From positions 1-23,777 of IMG/VR virus record IMGVR_UViG_2698536484_000001: a stretch of 23,777 nt of DNA. The stretch is one strand, 5' to 3'. Made by a program: the position numbers and the translations under genes. The stretch's first letter is position 1. Every line of letters starts with the position of its first letter. Origin of the DNA: a virus. Lineage: Duplodnaviria; Heunggongvirae; Uroviricota; Caudoviricetes. This document shows positions 2,616-9,377 of this stretch, piece after piece. The notes beneath the pieces are model-generated. The model had not been told where the DNA came from, did no database searches, and worked only from the letters and a program-made list of their open reading frames with translations.

Positions 2616-2968
2616 TACGCCTCCGATGTAACAGTCGTTATTCCATAGAGAGTGTCGATTTCAGCGGAAAACATGACACGTCGGGTCGTGGTATCCACCG
2701 TCGTATTGAAAGAGAGGATTGATTTAACGCCCTGCGTTTCCAGAATGCGCTTACGGATCGCCAGGTTGTAGGTTTCCGGCTTCTGCTTACCGAGTACGGA
2801 CTGGATCCACGGAGTCCCCTCGGTGGTGTCGAGAAACCATTGCCCATACCACAATTCGAATCGAGTTTTTACCGCCTGCGCCACGGCCTCCGGTGAGTTA
2901 ATCAGCCAAGTGTCATCACCGCTGCCAAAGGTGTAATCGCCATCGGCGTCTTCACGTCTGTATCGCAT
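2615..2968 (-). CDS. Small baseplate wedge protein (gp25/W position, Mu gp46-like)
   Basis: 117-aa ORF between spike and J-like genes with overlapping stop/start on both sides; assignment by synteny. Confidence 0.45.
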   Translation of the reverse strand: MRYRREDADGDYTFGSGDDTWLINSPEAVAQAVKTRFELWYGQWFLDTTEGTPWIQSVLGKQKPETYNLAIRKRILETQGVKSILSFNTTVDTTTRRVMFSAEIDTLYGITTVTSEA

Positions 2969-3720
2969 CAGTTTACTCCGTCGGTATTGCTTCCACCGCG
3001 CTGAACACCACCATGAGTGTGCGTATCATCGATTGGCTTGCCGTTAGCCTTCACGCTACCCAAAAACTCAACAGCACCAGTGATTTTTGAAGCCACACCA
3101 GAAACAACAGACCCCACCATGCCTCCCATCCAGGTTAACAGGCCATGAATGGTTACTTTCTCAGAAAAATCAGCCAGAGGGGCAACCACATCAAGGCCCC
3201 CCGGAGCGACAATTTTAATTTTCCTGGTATCAGGATTAAGCTCAAAATAGGTGCTGCCGTCATCACTACGCAACTGTGTGGCACTGGTATTAATACCGCT
3301 AATCTTCCTTGCCTGCGACTGGGGACCGACAATACAAAACGCATCCGATAAATCATGCATTCTGTCATCGACCGGCTCCTGTATCCCGCCACTCTGCCAC
3401 CAGAAATCAATACAACGATCGGCAAAAATCACCAAACATTCATCACCGGCTTTAACTGGAAACGTTAGCGTACAGCCTCCGCCACGCGGGAATACCACTG
3501 GCACATCCACCAGCAATGGGTAATTTTTGGTAATGCGGTTGCCGTCGTTATCAATTTCAACGTAACGGATAGCAGGCTGTACAACCGCCGTCACCGCATC
3601 AGGAGCGAATGACTGAACAATGCCAGGCAAGGCGACACGGATCTGGTTCTTTGTTGTTTCCCGTTCAGATTTAAATGTTTCGGCAAGGTCGCCGCTGCGG
3701 GTCTGGTCAGATACTGCCAT
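2968..3720 (-). CDS. Baseplate spike / assembly protein V-like (Mu gp45-like)
   Basis: 250-aa ORF; C-terminal ...DDTHTHGGVQRGGSNTDGVN resembles the His-rich apex (HxH..GG) of P2 gpV-type spikes; GGAG Shine-Dalgarno 8 nt upstream of ATG at 3720. Confidence 0.55.
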   Translation of the reverse strand: MAVSDQTRSGDLAETFKSERETTKNQIRVALPGIVQSFAPDAVTAVVQPAIRYVEIDNDGNRITKNYPLLVDVPVVFPRGGGCTLTFPVKAGDECLVIFADRCIDFWWQSGGIQEPVDDRMHDLSDAFCIVGPQSQARKISGINTSATQLRSDDGSTYFELNPDTRKIKIVAPGGLDVVAPLADFSEKVTIHGLLTWMGGMVGSVVSGVASKITGAVEFLGSVKANGKPIDDTHTHGGVQRGGSNTDGVN

Positions 3721-3739
3721 TTAGTAGGCTCCAGAAAGC

Positions 3740-3764
3740 AAAAAACCCGCCAAGTGGCGGGTTT
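3740..3764 (-). terminator. Rho-independent terminator ending the two-gene insert
   Basis: Minus strand reads AAACCCGCC-acuu-GGCGGGUUUUUU: 6-bp GC-rich stem (cccgcc/ggcggg, plus 3746-3761), 4-nt loop, followed by a 6-U tract; sits 21 nt after the stop at 3785. Confidence 0.65.
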
Positions 3765-3784
3765 GAATTTTGAGAAATTTCAGC

Positions 3785-4213
3785 TTATGCAGTTAACGAG
3801 TCATCACCAATCTTCAGTAATTGATTAACGATTGCATCGACCTCTTCCGCATCCAGAATTACACTTCTCGCGGTAATCCGGTTGATTTTCCGCTCAAGCT
3901 TGTAATCAGAATTAACACGTTGGGCATGCGTCATTTTCAGTTTAACGCCGATTTTCTTTACTGCGTTAACATCAACATCGTTAAGTGCAGCTGCCTCACC
4001 ACTACAAAAGGCCGTATAGACTCGCATGTGAACTCCACCTTTTAGTTTTTCACCATCTTGTGTAGCGGTCGGTACCAGATTGTTGGTGATCCGTAAGGCG
4101 GAATGGTACATACCATAGTATGCTCGGCTAATAGCATTTCTCGTCCACATCTCACCGTTTAGAGCCAGGGAATGCTTAGCCAATTCAAGAAAACAGGTAT
4201 GCTCAACCGACAT
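3785..4213 (-). CDS. Hypothetical protein B of inserted cassette (142 aa); possible HEPN-like effector
   Basis: ORF start ATG shares a base with the stop of the upstream gene (TAATG at 4211-4215), implying translational coupling. Contains R-AYYGMY-H (an R-x6-H arrangement), compatible with but not diagnostic of the HEPN Rx4-6H RNase motif. Visibly AT-richer than flanking tail genes. Confidence 0.5.
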   Translation of the reverse strand: MSVEHTCFLELAKHSLALNGEMWTRNAISRAYYGMYHSALRITNNLVPTATQDGEKLKGGVHMRVYTAFCSGEAAALNDVDVNAVKKIGVKLKMTHAQRVNSDYKLERKINRITARSVILDAEEVDAIVNQLLKIGDDSLTA

Positions 4214-4944
4214 TAGAGTTCCCCGGCTTCAAAGCATCCGACGCATTCTGAATCCGCAAGCCCCGCAATAATAATCTCATCAGCCAAGGCATTATTCATC
4301 TGCGAAAGAAGCACTGGATCGTCTGTTTTGACTTCAACGAACAGCGTATCAAGTTCTGACATTACATAAAAAGCATGAGCGCCAGCAAGACGAGCGCGGT
4401 ACTTTTCTGCAACGTTCATCATGAGCCGCCCAATAGTTTTTAGCTCCTGAGCATGATCTTTTTGGGTATGCAGATAATTGAGCGTGTCATACCATTTGCC
4501 CATATCTTCAGGGCGCGGCACTTCCATTGCAGTTAGCATCGGCATCACCTTTTCAAGCAAATCGATATCAACCCAGTATGCAGAAATTGTAGCAACCTCA
4601 GCCAATATCGTTGGATTAAGTGAATCAGATGCTTTCTGAATCATCACATACTGGCGAGCATGCAAACCTAAGTTACGCAGCGCAATCGTATAGTTACAAA
4701 AAGAAACTGGATCGTTAGGCGCTATTCTCAACCCCCGCTCACAGAGTGAACATCCTTCATCTATTTCACCAAGAACAAGCTTAGCTAAGCCTTCAATTGA
4801 TAGCCCCTGATAACGTTCAGGTAGTTTCTTCGCTTCACGAATGATTCGATGGATTTCAAACTCACTCAGAAGGTTTTCACCCTTAGTTAATGAAGGAGTC
4901 AGAAGATCTAACAGTTCTCCTGATTTTGGCTGCGCTAAGCTCAT
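4213..4944 (-). CDS. Hypothetical protein A of inserted cassette (243 aa)
   Basis: ORF with AGGAA ~10 nt upstream of ATG at 4944; two CxxC pairs (EGCSLCERG near the N-terminal third and SECVGCFEAGEL at the C-terminus) suggest a possible metal-binding site. No family recognised. Confidence 0.5.
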   Translation of the reverse strand: MSLAQPKSGELLDLLTPSLTKGENLLSEFEIHRIIREAKKLPERYQGLSIEGLAKLVLGEIDEGCSLCERGLRIAPNDPVSFCNYTIALRNLGLHARQYVMIQKASDSLNPTILAEVATISAYWVDIDLLEKVMPMLTAMEVPRPEDMGKWYDTLNYLHTQKDHAQELKTIGRLMMNVAEKYRARLAGAHAFYVMSELDTLFVEVKTDDPVLLSQMNNALADEIIIAGLADSECVGCFEAGEL

Positions 4945-5093
4945 GTTTTAGTTATTCCTGGCTTTAATGAAGTAGCATATCGATGGCAATCCACCATCAA
5001 AAAGTCAGTGCAGTGTAATCGCTCGTCTCAAAAAACAACAGTTTTTAGAGCACATTTTGTTGTTTTTCAGGCGTTACGAATTTCAGGTTACCT

Positions 5094-5435
5094 TCACCCA
5101 GCCACTTTTTTACAAGGGAAAGATCCGATGATTTTCGGCGCATCCATGCTGTTCTGCAGAAGCTGGACATTCAGGAATCGCGTTTCGGTACCAGGGCGAC
5201 GAATGTATTCAAAGCCGTAGTTGTTACCGTCTTTGGCAGGCATAAGCCCCATGTCTACTTTCAAACCATTGGTACCCAGTTCGGTGATTTTTTGAGAGGT
5301 AACTCTTTCACCGTTGATAGTCGATAACTCGCCCTGGTTTGCAACCATAGTGTAGCCACCGCATTTAACCGTGAAGCCATCCGCCCACGCGCTGCACGCA
5401 GAAAAGACAGCTAACAGAAAAATAATACCCCTCAT
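5094..5435 (-). CDS. Small secreted (periplasmic or lipo-) protein, 113 aa
   Basis: N-terminus MRGIIFLLAVFSACSAWA-DGF is a signal peptide with an A-x-A cleavage site (a Cys at FSAC could alternatively be a lipobox); two further Cys in the mature part. AGGGGA Shine-Dalgarno 6 nt upstream; start is 3 nt after the hub gene stop. Confidence 0.55.
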   Translation of the reverse strand: MRGIIFLLAVFSACSAWADGFTVKCGGYTMVANQGELSTINGERVTSQKITELGTNGLKVDMGLMPAKDGNNYGFEYIRRPGTETRFLNVQLLQNSMDAPKIIGSFPCKKVAG

Positions 5436-5438
5436 TGC

Positions 5439-6500
5439 TCATCCCCTTTGCAAAGCCGATCGCGTATACAGATCCGCCGCGCCACGCGCTTCGCACATCA
5501 TATCCATGTACCACGCCTGGCCCCTTGTGTCGCCAGTGTACATAATCCCGCGCACAATATAAACGCCATCCGTTGCGATGCTGGCAGGCTGCGATGTGGT
5601 GCCGCTTAGCGTGATATTTCCATCCGTGTTCTGGTCGGTGATCTGACCACCAGCCATCGCAATATCGTTGTTCGACAAGGCGGTACGATACACGGAAGCC
5701 TGATCCAGCTGAATAAGTCCGTTAACCCGGATGTTCGGATTAATAAGCGCGCGGACGTTTACGCCGTTACCGATAGTCTGCTGCGGCATGCCAATAAGCC
5801 CGGTAGCGCTGTTGAGCACAATCGCTTCATGAACATATTCGTTATTCGCCACCATCTGGCGCTGACCGTCCACGAATTGCCATGTTGTGCCACATTGCCC
5901 GGCTACGTTATCCATTAGATGCCGCGTCATGCCAAAGAGTACCCGCCCCCGGGGGAATACAGTAGCAGGCATTTCAGGCGTCAGGCCTTCGGTCGCGCCT
6001 TTGGCTTCGAAGTCTTTCATCAGCGCACGGTTTACATCAGCGACCGTGTAACCGGCAGCCAGCGTCTGTGAGGTTATACTGGTGGCAAAAGCCAGATCAG
6101 TATCTGCTGCCTGAATCAGGACGTAGGAATCAACCGGACTGTCTTTTCCTGTGACCGAGTAGCGAATTTCACCGCTGAAAATCAGTCCGTAGTTGCGGCC
6201 ATCACTCTGACCCACGTCCGCCGCGTCAACTTCCCGCACGGTCCCGACGTCGCTTGCCGACACCTCCGGCGCGATACCGTCGTAACCGGCAATCAGACGC
6301 ACTTTCGAAAACTCCTGCCCGGTGATTCGGTTCACAGTATCTGCCGAGAGGTTATAAATTTTGATAGTCCCTACCCGGGACGCGCTGCTGATGTTGAACC
6401 AGTCGATCGTAAAGGTGACTTTAAAATCACTTAGCTCAATTCCCTGACCGTTCCCGTCCACAAGCTGCAGCTCGAAATGTCTCATCCAGTTCTGTGACAT
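5439..6500 (-). CDS. Baseplate hub protein (Mu gp44/P-like, P2 gpD-like position)
   Basis: 353-aa ORF downstream of tape measure and two small tail genes; size and order match the Mu-type tail module. Confidence 0.5.
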   Translation of the reverse strand: MSQNWMRHFELQLVDGNGQGIELSDFKVTFTIDWFNISSASRVGTIKIYNLSADTVNRITGQEFSKVRLIAGYDGIAPEVSASDVGTVREVDAADVGQSDGRNYGLIFSGEIRYSVTGKDSPVDSYVLIQAADTDLAFATSITSQTLAAGYTVADVNRALMKDFEAKGATEGLTPEMPATVFPRGRVLFGMTRHLMDNVAGQCGTTWQFVDGQRQMVANNEYVHEAIVLNSATGLIGMPQQTIGNGVNVRALINPNIRVNGLIQLDQASVYRTALSNNDIAMAGGQITDQNTDGNITLSGTTSQPASIATDGVYIVRGIMYTGDTRGQAWYMDMMCEARGAADLYTRSALQRG

Positions 6501-6502
6501 GC

Positions 6503-6805
6503 TTACTCCGTTGATACCAGTAAATGGCTGCGACCGCCCAGGTCAGTTTTTGTGGGGTAATCCTGTGTGTTGTCATCACAGACCACCACCAGCTTAAAAC
6601 CAAGCCCCATACAGGCGTACTGCGCCAGCAGGTCAGCACCAGTGACGAGAGGAATACCGGAGATTACCGGCTCCCCTCTGTCGTTCTGCAGGTCCATAAT
6701 CCAGTACAGATCGCGCCATATGATGCTAATCCGCCAGGTGACACCACCCAGGACGATGCTGAACTGCTGGTTGTCCGCTGTCAGCGGAATTTCCTGAATT
6801 GTCAT
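6503..6805 (-). CDS. Small tail/baseplate protein (100 aa)
   Basis: ORF tightly packed between the 195-aa gene and the hub gene; function inferred from position only. Confidence 0.4.
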   Translation of the reverse strand: MTIQEIPLTADNQQFSIVLGGVTWRISIIWRDLYWIMDLQNDRGEPVISGIPLVTGADLLAQYACMGLGFKLVVVCDDNTQDYPTKTDLGGRSHLLVSTE

Positions 6806-7392
6806 TAGCCGCCCCCCAGTAATGACGCCACGTTACCCGTGATGCTTTTCAGCAGTGAAGTATCTGGAGGTTTTGTGGTTTTGTTGCCGCTGTTCTGTAC
6901 CGCCGACGTGCTGGCCCCTTCCTTCATGTTGGTTTTATCCGCGACGGTAATCTGCTGTGTCCGGGAGATAATGACCTCCCTCAGGGTGAGGACGGCGGAC
7001 AGGACGTTTTCGGTTGTCTTGTCCGTCGTCACTTCCAGCGCCCGGATCAACATGTTGCTGTACAGCCGTTTACCGGTTACCACATCGAAGGGGATACGGC
7101 TTTCCTGCAGATCCAGTAGCTCCTGATACGTCTGCTGAGGACTCAGGCCGAGCAGGCTGGTAGCCGTCAGGTTACTGGCAAAATCCAGCAATGCGCCGCC
7201 ACCGGCGAAACCAACCTCCATCACCACTTCTGACGGTTTTTTATAGGCATGATCAGCGACAGCGGCCCCGACCTCTACCGGATGCTCTGTTATTTCAAGC
7301 ATATCTGTATGCTTCTCTGAAATAACAACACTGGGAACAATCATTCCTATTTTTCTGCTCTGCTGATGAAAAAGTGTAGAGAGAATATCCAC
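6805..7392 (-). CDS. Tail protein following tape measure (195 aa)
   Basis: Start overlaps the tape measure stop; occupies the slot of Mu gp43 / PBSX XkdP but is shorter; function by position only. Confidence 0.4.
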   Translation of the reverse strand: MDILSTLFHQQSRKIGMIVPSVVISEKHTDMLEITEHPVEVGAAVADHAYKKPSEVVMEVGFAGGGALLDFASNLTATSLLGLSPQQTYQELLDLQESRIPFDVVTGKRLYSNMLIRALEVTTDKTTENVLSAVLTLREVIISRTQQITVADKTNMKEGASTSAVQNSGNKTTKPPDTSLLKSITGNVASLLGGG

Positions 7393-9377
7393 TAACCCAC
7401 CCTCACCTGATTACTTCGCATGACCTGAGCATTTGCAGACTGTTGCCGACGTGCAACCTCATTACCGACAGCGTGCGGATCTCCGCCACCGTAAATATGG
7501 TAGGTATTTTGCTGGTTAACCTCTGTCACTTTGCCACTAATTCCCGCCACGGCAGCCTTATTAATCAGCTCTCGAGAATAGATATTTCTTCCATTCTCAT
7601 GCTGGATAATGCTGCTCATCAATGCTGACATGGTTTGCGGATCGCTCATATTCAGGGCAGCCCGGGGATCCACTCCCAGTCGTTGCGATACAGCCCTGAT
7701 ATACGCGGTTGTGTTGTTATTATCAGACGCAGGTGCCCAGGTAGAGATAATTTTCTCCACACTGTTTATTCCCCGTCCGGCGTACAGCATTAACTGACGA
7801 GCAAGAGCCCGTAATCCATCAAAAGCGGTTTCAAATCTGGCAAATCGCCCGCCCGGTCGTTCAAGAGAAGCCCCCGCCTGACCAGCAAAATTAAGGTTTC
7901 CCGGATTGTTATTCCGTTCTCCTCGCTTCGTAGCCTGTGCATGTTGTTCCGGCTCAGCACCTGGAATATCTGACTGAATATTTGCGCCTTTTACGGTATG
8001 AGGATTACGACCAAAATCGGTATCAATGCCAAGCCAGCGCAATGAATCTCCAATATTTTGTTTCGTGTAATCCCAGGATGACTTCGCACTGGCACCAATA
8101 TTTTCGCGATCGGAGTACAAATAAGCAGCATAAGCCATCCAGCCTTTTAACCATGGAGGTACCGGCAAACCAGATATTTTCCCGAAAGCCCCCAGAACCC
8201 TGGATACCCAGACACCCGCGATGAATGTACCGAGGATTTCCAGTGCATTTTGCCAGCCGCCAACACCATCTTTTAGTTCCAGAAGGTGATCACGAAGCCA
8301 GGTGATCGCATCCTTCGCTTTATCTATTGCCGGTTGCCATTTTTCCCAGTCGATAAGACTGTTACCGCCTTCTTTCCATGTTTTGTAGTCTTCCCACAAG
8401 AGACCGAGAGCCACGATCAGACCGGTAATCAGCCCTATAGGTGACATCCAGAAAGTAGAGTTAAGTATCCGCATGGCGACAACCAGACCGCCGATAACCT
8501 CTATCAGGGTTTTCGTTTCGGCATCCAGTTTCCCCCACCACTCGATGATATCTCCGACACCATCGACTATCCGAAATGCTACCCGCCCGACTATCTCACC
8601 CAGCCAGAGGATCCCCTTTATGACCTTTGTGATGGTGACTTCAATTTTGGGAAAATTTTCAATTATCTTTTTGCGCAGGTTATCAATCTGCCCCGCCAGT
8701 CCGCCCGCAAGATTCGATCCGATTTTGTCCCGCGCCATCCCGGCCATTTCACCGAGCGATTTCAGCGAGGTCATAAACCGGTTTGACGATAAGGCAGCCT
8801 GATCGGCATTAAATCCGATCGCTTTCACCATTTCTGAATACTGAGCGCTGAACTGCCCCACTCCGCGACGCATAGCCATCAGGGTATTTTCGTCAATGCC
8901 CAGCATCTGCGCATACTGGTTAGCCCGGTAATACGGCATACCGCTGAGCTTCTGGCCTACACCTGTAAAAATAGCGGCCATGTCACGCATGTTGCCGCTG
9001 GCATCACGGGTCTGTACGCCCAGGCGATTCAGGAAGCCTTCCGCCCCGGGATTGTTACGAATAAACCGGGAGAGGCTTTCCAGAGAAGATCGCGCAGCGT
9101 CCACGCTGCCGCCAACCTGCGAAACCGCATAGCCAATAGACTGAATTCCCTGGACTGTCGCGCCGGTGCGCTGTGACGCCCAGTAAAGATTATCCAGACC
9201 GGAGGCGATCTTAGCCGTAAAGGCCACCACGGACAGCGCAGCTCCTTCAACAGCCAGCCCCATTTTGATGACATTTGCAGTTGTACCGGCGAGGACAGAA
9301 CCGAACTTTTTCGCTCCTGCATCATCCACACTGAAGCCAAGCGAGACGAGGAAATCTTTAATAGTTTCAGCGTTCAT
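7392..9377 (-). CDS. Tail tape measure protein
   Basis: Long ORF after the chaperone pair; track ORF starts at a TTG at 9398, but the first ATG (9377-9375, MNAETIKDFLVSLGF...) is preceded by GGAGAGAGG and is the likelier start. Middle region has hydrophobic helix-like segments (ILWLGEIVGRVAF..., IGGLVVAMRIL..., IGLITGLIVALGLLW) typical of tape measure proteins. Confidence 0.75.
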   Translation of the reverse strand: MNAETIKDFLVSLGFSVDDAGAKKFGSVLAGTTANVIKMGLAVEGAALSVVAFTAKIASGLDNLYWASQRTGATVQGIQSIGYAVSQVGGSVDAARSSLESLSRFIRNNPGAEGFLNRLGVQTRDASGNMRDMAAIFTGVGQKLSGMPYYRANQYAQMLGIDENTLMAMRRGVGQFSAQYSEMVKAIGFNADQAALSSNRFMTSLKSLGEMAGMARDKIGSNLAGGLAGQIDNLRKKIIENFPKIEVTITKVIKGILWLGEIVGRVAFRIVDGVGDIIEWWGKLDAETKTLIEVIGGLVVAMRILNSTFWMSPIGLITGLIVALGLLWEDYKTWKEGGNSLIDWEKWQPAIDKAKDAITWLRDHLLELKDGVGGWQNALEILGTFIAGVWVSRVLGAFGKISGLPVPPWLKGWMAYAAYLYSDRENIGASAKSSWDYTKQNIGDSLRWLGIDTDFGRNPHTVKGANIQSDIPGAEPEQHAQATKRGERNNNPGNLNFAGQAGASLERPGGRFARFETAFDGLRALARQLMLYAGRGINSVEKIISTWAPASDNNNTTAYIRAVSQRLGVDPRAALNMSDPQTMSALMSSIIQHENGRNIYSRELINKAAVAGISGKVTEVNQQNTYHIYGGGDPHAVGNEVARRQQSANAQVMRSNQVRVG

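Follow-up and report, generated by a model that had tools for sequence, protein, structure and literature searches.

The stretch analysed here (the window, 23,777 nucleotides of the IMG/VR virus record IMGVR_UViG_2698536484_000001) constitutes the late region of a myovirus prophage that is SEN34/Brunovirus-like, and its positions 2900-6600 are 100% identical to E. coli O55:H7 DEC5E. All tail genes are on the minus strand, in the order baseplate hub, a 113-amino acid (aa) open reading frame (ORF), 149 bp of non-coding sequence, gene A, gene B, a 20-nt spacer, a hairpin, 22 nt and the membrane-puncturing spike gene (Table 1). The genes A and B, which overlap by one base of the stop codon TAA of A and the start codon ATG of B (TAATG), are the subject of this study. 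A preliminary description of this DNA, made from the sequence alone, had proposed them as an AT-rich accessory or defence cassette inserted between the hub and spike genes. Both ORFs, their overlap and the upstream gap are present as described, and the gap is non-coding. The location between hub and spike also holds, but the cassette does not abut the hub gene, because the 113-aa ORF lies between them.

A mobile cassette in a hypervariable slot

Positions 3765-5093 are a mobile two-gene accessory cassette (moron) in a hypervariable slot. The region stands apart in composition, with a GC content of 43.3% vs 51.6 +/- 2.3% in windows of the same size elsewhere (z = -3.5), and is the lowest-GC stretch within the whole window. 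Likewise, GC content at third codon positions is 0.39 in A and 0.41 in B, and 0.47-0.64 in the neighbouring tail genes, so that the AT-richness first noted by eye was borne out by calculation.

The edges of the cassette were located by blastn against phages 689R2, YP3, and SEN34, and against E. coli prophages with YafO, DUF4282, and DUF2335 cargo. Homology with these other-cargo relatives stops at ~3764-3767 and restarts at ~5094-5107 (six prophages/phages). The upstream break coincides in the alignments with the stop codon of the 113-aa ORF and, judged from the same alignments, the 149-bp upstream region belongs to the cassette. The downstream break is the 5' edge of the terminator hairpin, and homology runs through the hairpin itself. 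A 12-nt direct repeat near both edges (3776-3787 and 5079-5090; 11/12 bases identical) was considered as an insertion signature and set aside as probably due to chance because of its poor conservation across other copies: one other E. coli copy retains part of it, and those of Citrobacter, Pseudocitrobacter, and Salmonella do not conserve it. A non-coding RNA inside the cassette was also discarded, since Rfam matches were sub-threshold only and those at 3728-3835 reflect the terminator hairpin.

The hairpin (3743-3764, followed by UUUUUUGCUUUCU) begins 20 nt past the stop codon of B and is strong, with an energy of -15.7 kcal/mol (z = -4.4) that none of 200 shuffled sequences equalled. Its strength agrees with the preliminary description, but its attribution to the cassette does not. 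Together with the spike ribosome-binding site, the hairpin is common to the 689R2, SEN34, YafO, DUF4282, and DUF2335 variants, and is therefore a backbone element. The terminator would end cassette transcripts; moreover, we infer that late transcription reads through it into the spike gene, since there is no promoter room between the hairpin and the spike ATG. An unrelated Enterobacter myovirus has a near-identical hairpin, ACCCGCCACCTGGCGGGT, after its A-B pair (locus L013 8166-8183), which suggests that such terminators may be joints held in common for the exchange of cargo.

The slot flanks were found in 353 of 5426 complete E. coli genomes (about 6.5%), and A and B occupy the slot in 33 of these 353 (about 9%). 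In the remaining relatives compared, the same slot holds differing cargo: a 190-aa gene with a YafO-family toxin, DUF4282 (79 aa), DUF2335 (190 aa), STY1065/STY2022, an HMG-box gene, and several unnamed genes. Thus, the pair is not conserved in all related prophages, and the moron layout first proposed is upheld by exchangeable cargo, sharp edges, deviant composition, and the adjoining terminator, with the promoter backed only by comparison with other lineages. On the other hand, the statement that such tail-module slots are known anti-phage hotspots did not survive comparison with PADLOC, to which none of eight alternative cargo proteins matched; no description of the hub-spike slot as a hotspot was found in the literature searched. 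The slot is a hypervariable cargo hotspot, but not demonstrably a defence hotspot. It shares with P2/P4 hotspots and lambdoid morons the fixed position, the sharp edges, the exchangeable cargo of deviant composition, and the terminator at its edge (PMC9122126), and differs from both in its place between the hub-adjacent gene and the spike gene of SEN34-like myoviruses.

Table 1. Positions of the cassette, its parts and flanking genes in the window, and of related elements in other loci
Feature	Position	Strand	Basis
Variable accessory cassette (upstream non-coding region, A, B, 20-nt tail)	3765..5093	-	blastn, GC, presence/absence
Gene A, 243 aa; putative non-enzymatic partner (antitoxin or sensor) of B	4213..4944	-	
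Gene B, 142 aa; HEPN fold, AF0298/PF05168 (Class II HEPN) type; putative effector/toxin	3785..4213	-	
Cassette-borne 5' non-coding region, 149 bp, candidate regulatory elements	4945..5093	-	blastn, conservation, folding
Intrinsic terminator (stem 3743-3764 + U-tract); backbone element, downstream slot edge	3735..3764	-	scan, folding, conservation
113-aa ORF, N-terminal signal peptide; backbone gene, upstream slot edge, outside cassette	5094..5435	-	
Baseplate hub gene (flank)	5439..6500	-	PHROG 196 baseplate hub E 2e-88; weak Pfam E217_GP41
Membrane-puncturing spike gene (flank)	2968..3720	-	Pfam spike N-terminal domain 3.6e-43 + Apex motif; RefSeq annotation
Promoter-like element with palindrome, -10 variants TACACT/TAAACT/TATGCT	L011 ~7880-7910; L008 ~7891-7920; L013 6907-6935; L018 ~6905-6934		
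Remote chromosomal A-like/B-like loci	L069 1710-2911; L071 1697-2947; L023 4087-5420		

The HEPN-fold protein B and its repeat-protein partner A

Protein B has a HEPN fold and belongs to the AF0298/PF05168 (Class II) type. Its AlphaFold (AF2) model is of high confidence (pLDDT 91.8) and comprises helices at residues 4-16, 20-42, 81-103, and 111-131, with an insert at 43-80. When the model was compared with the PDB by Foldseek, the top seven matches were all HEPN-family proteins, the best being 2hsb (AF0298; prob 1.0, TM 0.67/0.74), and others being 2q00, 1ufb (TT1696), 3o10, and 8xeh; a sacsin HEPN domain and a HEPN-MNT complex are among them. Close relatives of B number about 30, all from Enterobacterales, while a search of 1.84 billion representative proteins with the B profile gave 1096 matches, and the family alignment used here holds 80 sequences with 23-47% identity to B. 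The profile of these 80 sequences matched the PDB HEPN entries 9xbd/9xbc (7e-10) and 2hsb (1.7e-6). Furthermore, 26 of the 80 relatives match Pfam HEPN PF05168 at E <= 0.01 (best 1.4e-7) and 36 match HEPN_IX, a generic HEPN profile of PADLOC; B itself has no PF05168 match, and two of 21 close relatives reach E ~0.14.

Five residues (E21, R25, Y32, R99, and Y104) are invariant across the 80 sequences and a further five (R30, Y33, H37, H62, and D103) nearly so. H62 (in GG-x-H-x-R) shows no variation in the close family and is conserved to at least 90% over the whole alignment. The Rx4-6H motif of HEPN proteins is located at the end of helix 3 (PMC3710099), where B has R99-V-N-S-D103-Y104. In AF0298-like HEPN proteins, Asp replaces the motif His, and an alternative conserved His comes from the insert between helices 2 and 3 (PMC3710099); D103 and H62 of B agree with this arrangement. 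The preliminary description had likened B to HEPN RNases on account of an R-x6-H string, and was right as to the fold, now recovered by structure prediction, Foldseek, and profiles, but not as to the site. R30-x6-H37 was rejected as the catalytic motif because it falls within helix 2, and not where helix 3 ends, as the canonical site does; it forms part of a conserved helix-2 signature of this branch, SRAYYxMxH, and R30 and H37 may still line the site. The entries 9xbd and 9xbc are two structures of one "HEPN domain-containing protein" that differ by a Tyr to Phe change in R-x3-D-Y, which suggests that this Tyr is being probed by others in a Class II-type HEPN protein.

Protein A consists of a TPR-like helical-repeat domain (residues ~1-180), with tandem helix-turn-helix repeats bearing the TPR signature, and a small beta-beta-alpha-beta C-terminal domain (~185-239). 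F237 is the sole invariant residue in an alignment of 12 sequences reaching down to 16-31% identity, which shows no constellation of catalytic residues; hence, A is best read as a non-enzymatic binding protein. Two CxxC pairs had been taken as a sign of a sensor. These are not conserved: close relatives already differ at C65, C68, and C236, and C233, although they all share it, is lost in distant ones; a zinc-binding or sensor role of the pairs was consequently rejected. The proposal of A as an antitoxin loses this argument, but keeps another, namely that A holds the upstream, overlapping position of the antitoxin in related HEPN modules. A degenerate MNT nucleotidyltransferase was also considered and rejected, since A has neither a GSX10DXD motif nor an NTP_transf_2 match.

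Spread of the pair and its upstream region

In all 33 IMG/VR loci B lies directly downstream of A, 30 of them in the hub-spike slot and three elsewhere, and the same holds for every further locus examined. The two proteins have diverged together (13 A/B pairs; Mantel r = 0.96, equalled in none of 5000 permutations), A faster than B (for example, 25% vs 40% identity). Upstream partners of B relatives aligned over near full length with the A profile (hhalign E 6e-27, 4e-8, 1e-6, and 1.5e-5); for a 304-aa partner in Pararobbsia, a link to A has weak support (hhalign E 0.08).

Prophages of Salmonella, Ewingella, Citrobacter, and Pseudocitrobacter carry the pair in the same slot. It is also found in a Klebsiella siphovirus-type prophage, where the tail chaperone and tape-measure genes flank it, in an Enterobacter myovirus, before gpJ, and before a tape-measure gene beside Fic and a 198-aa gene with YafO. 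In Klebsiella phage vB_Kpn_Chronis (gp57/gp58; locus L068 5001-6157), the only one of 50,697 deposited phage genomes with a homologue of A at the protein level, the pair lies between replication and lysis genes. This phage is a cultured isolate from sewage, in which A-B could be studied. Moreover, remote A-like/B-like pairs occur in chromosomes, between dnaJ and a DEAD-box helicase gene, beside transposases and a gene for an Rhs toxin, and, in Pararobbsia, with a transporter gene on one side and mutS on the other; since these contexts are not of phage origin, the module is not restricted to phages. More distant B relatives (26-32% identity), at loci that a motif scan found in one Nevskiaceae bacterium and in three genomes of archaea, have upstream a canonical MNT gene carrying LFGSxARG...DIDLL. 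Such partners were found only beside these much more distant relatives, and A therefore occupies the place of the MNT antitoxin.

The upstream region is conserved with the cassette in E. coli, Citrobacter, and Pseudocitrobacter. It contains a ribosome-binding site for A (AGGA, 4956-4959) and a -10-like hexamer, TACACT (5012-5017), invariant in six copies. The cassette also contains, shortly after the 113-aa ORF, an AU-rich inverted repeat, AAAAACAACA-N17-TGTTGTTTTT (5031-5067, minus strand), which is conserved in the E. coli, Citrobacter, and Pseudocitrobacter copies. It folds into a hairpin (arms 5058-5067 and 5031-5040; -8.6 kcal/mol, z = -2.5) followed by a U-run, and could act either as a regulatory site or as a weak terminator insulating the cassette.

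In the Ewingella, Klebsiella, Enterobacter, and JGI copies, a promoter-like element, TTGAA[AG]-17-TA[CAT][AG]CT, precedes A and holds in its spacer a perfect palindrome, TTACC-N5-GGTAA, which looks like a putative operator. Promoter and palindrome travel with the cassette through three different phage backbones, and in these copies a terminator follows directly after B. In the lineage of the window, TACACT stands at an equivalent distance from the start codon with no good -35 element. The sigma70-like candidate first proposed, TTGATG-15-TATGCT (4974-5000), has 8/12 consensus matches and a 15-nt spacer, falls below the scan threshold, and is conserved among the closest copies only, not in those of Salmonella and Cronobacter. 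Independent transcription of the cassette copy in the window is plausible, as judged from these sequence elements. Of the general traits of type II toxin-antitoxin (TA) systems, the gene overlap and the gene order are present in the window, while a palindromic promoter is present in the other lineages.

Possible roles of the A-B module

Taken together, a TA or abortive-infection-like anti-phage module with a swapped partner is a plausible reading of the sequences. The explanation that we find best for the whole, and to which we give about even chances, is that of a moron cassette composed of a HEPN effector, B, and a TPR-like antitoxin, A, acting in abortive infection or in prophage stabilisation. 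In a lysogen, transcription of the cassette would start in the upstream region that it carries and stop at the shared terminator, through which late phage transcription would read. A would bind B through its repeat surface and hold it inactive, in the manner of a type II antitoxin; depletion of A after host shut-off, or its titration by a phage protein, would release B, which would then act on RNA and stop growth. The outcome would be an abortive-infection-type protection of the lysogen, or stabilisation of the prophage.

Several known systems offer precedents. Closest are the Class II HEPN/MNT modules (PF05168 + PF01909; AF0298-type, 2hsb), with which B shares the fold, the SRAYYxMxH signature, the His in the insert between helices 2 and 3, and R-x3-[DE]-Y where helix 3 ends (PMC3710099), and the pair shares the order of an upstream partner gene overlapping a small downstream HEPN gene. 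Unlike these modules, the partner is a TPR-like repeat protein and not a nucleotidyltransferase, and B lies below the Pfam HEPN threshold; besides, Class II modules are described as more prevalent in archaea than those of Class I, whereas the A-partnered B family occurs in proteobacterial phages and other bacterial chromosomes. HepT/MntA (type VII; Class I HEPN/MNT) likewise has the HEPN gene downstream of a neutralising partner and a conserved Tyr beside the helix-3 Arg motif, as is the invariant Y104 in the B family, but B lacks RX4HXY and no MNT with GSX10DXD is adjacent. Because the cassette has no MNT, AMPylation of B is not expected, and A could neutralise it only by binding.

Neutralisation by binding is known from RnlAB, in which a HEPN toxin is held by a protein antitoxin, and HEPN defence by prophages from Tha (PMC8266594, PMC11087260). 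As proposed here for A-B, in the anti-T4 systems RnlAB/LsoAB a HEPN effector is held by a co-encoded non-enzymatic protein and freed on infection (PMC3710099, PMC8266594); there is no detectable sequence relationship to A-B, however, and RnlA is a large multi-domain protein with the canonical motif and RnlB a small one, whereas here the partner (243 aa) exceeds the HEPN protein (142 aa). Tha, the tail-activated system of S. aureus prophages, resembles the proposed module in that a prophage HEPN protein aborts infection by other phages and faces the same autoimmunity problem on induction (PMC11087260); it belongs to another HEPN family, sits by the integrase region, and has an antisense-encoded inhibitor instead of a TPR partner. 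Within conflict systems, operons that pair a HEPN protein with a TPR or Sel1 repeat protein are described for the LA2681/AbiU2 families in the HEPN census of 2013 (PMC3710099, Table 1), but these keep Rx4-6H and form separate Pfam families, which B did not match.

A number of observations weigh against an abortive-infection or stabilising module. B has no His where helix 3 ends and hence lacks Rx4-6H; moreover, since no RNase motif was found in Class II (PF05168) HEPN proteins and no biochemistry had been reported for them as of 2020 (PMC7641770), we infer rather than observe an activity of B. In addition, B has no Pfam match above threshold and no NCBIfam match, and in PADLOC it matches only HEPN_IX, weakly (E 0.009, 14 bits); A matched PDC-M71B of PADLOC-DB v2 at E 0.037, so that this check, suggested at the outset, returned no significant system for either protein. 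Two traits of A are unusual for a type II antitoxin, namely that it is larger than B and that no recognisable DNA-binding domain was found in it. Regarding regulation, the copy in the window lacks the palindromic operator of the other lineages, and its candidate promoter is weak (7-8/12 consensus matches). The location of the pair in an early-type region of vB_Kpn_Chronis could mean a role in lytic growth, and the alternative cargo of the slot gave no PADLOC match, as described above. Finally, accessions and peptide strings of A and B were absent from the supplements, covered in part, of the DefensePredictor E. coli screen, and the pair was accordingly not equated with a system of that screen; DS-28, a two-gene HEPN system of DefensePredictor, was rejected as well, its sequences being unrelated and its gene order opposite.

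A more specific version of the HEPN effector and antitoxin reading, which we advance tentatively and hold to be somewhat less probable, is that A-B belongs to a class of HEPN conflict systems that is widespread, in phage and chromosomal sites alike, and has not been described before. In this class, a fast-evolving TPR-like protein would have replaced the MNT antitoxin of Class II HEPN/MNT systems, would restrain the HEPN effector, and would sense a protein of an infecting phage, and Class II HEPN catalysis would proceed through a site formed by R/D/Y and the insert His.

Among the alternatives, the one that survives best, although we consider it unlikely, is that B is a non-catalytic HEPN protein binding nucleotides or RNA, and forms with A a regulatory or adaptor pair (for lysogenic conversion, counter-defence, or the lytic programme) rather than a toxin module. 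The missing canonical His, the lack of demonstrated RNase activity in Class II HEPN proteins (PMC7641770), the documented role of inactive HEPN domains as binders (PMC3710099), and the early-type location in the sewage-isolated phage are all in keeping with it. However, the 80 relatives share about 10 polar residues with little or no variation, which looks like an active or ligand site, and this set agrees with the "alternative active site" put forward for HEPN proteins of the AF0298 kind (PMC3710099); strict linkage with a fast-evolving partner is, furthermore, typical of conflict systems.

Slightly less probable still is a plain addiction or stabilisation TA module, which would maintain the prophage or the cassette by post-segregational killing and would exclude no phages. 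The gene layout is the same as in TA systems, the cassette moves among many mobile contexts, a YafO-family toxin pair is an alternative cargo of the same slot, and no known defence system was found there. Yet many prophage-borne TA modules have proved defensive (PMC10440598) and TPR-type repeat domains are frequent as defence sensors (PMC9122126), and toxicity of B is as hypothetical under simple addiction as in the effector-antitoxin module that we prefer. A structural or assembly role of A and B in the baseplate or tail, suggested by their place and orientation within the tail operon, is very improbable, given that only about 9% of related E. coli prophages carry them and unrelated genes replace them in the others, that the pair also occurs elsewhere in unrelated phages and in chromosomes, and that their composition is deviant and HEPN and TPR folds are not structural ones.

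The concepts of HEPN effectors, of HEPN-TPR gene linkage, and of prophage cargo hotspots are already known. For the A-B pair itself, no description was found in the literature, including the HEPN census, NetFlax, P2/P4 hotspots, DefensePredictor, and HEPN-MNT papers; the pair is absent from Pfam, NCBIfam, and PADLOC, and both proteins are listed in PHROGs with unknown function. If active, an A-B module of HEPN effector and repeat-protein antitoxin would provide a function and a trigger logic for the Class II (PF05168-type) HEPN branch, which is abundant and yet has no biochemistry reported in the literature surveyed, and would indicate that the antitoxin slot of HEPN modules is open to takeover by a non-enzymatic repeat protein. 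Were the undescribed conflict class real, it would give this branch its first activity and biological role. Since the pair is small (about 1.3 kb) and resides in E. coli, it is directly testable.

A further result of the analysis is a cargo slot with sharp edges in a common enterobacterial prophage family, and the other cargo of this slot (the YafO pair, small membrane proteins, and unknowns) is a source of candidate genes for phage-phage competition. In one further locus (L028 516-3441), a Fic-domain gene, a 198-aa gene with a YafO toxin, and a homologous A-B pair all stand before the tape-measure gene; the 190-aa gene and YafO-family pair of the E. coli hub-spike slot (locus L005 1164-2154) resembles the 198-aa and YafO pair of that locus.

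The 113-aa ORF at the upstream edge has a clear N-terminal signal peptide (MRGIIFLLAVFSACSAWA/DG) and is kept directly downstream of the hub gene in most relatives, irrespective of cargo. Searches placed it in PHROG 3443 (function unknown) and in no Pfam or NCBIfam family; it would be a secreted or periplasmic protein encoded within a baseplate operon.

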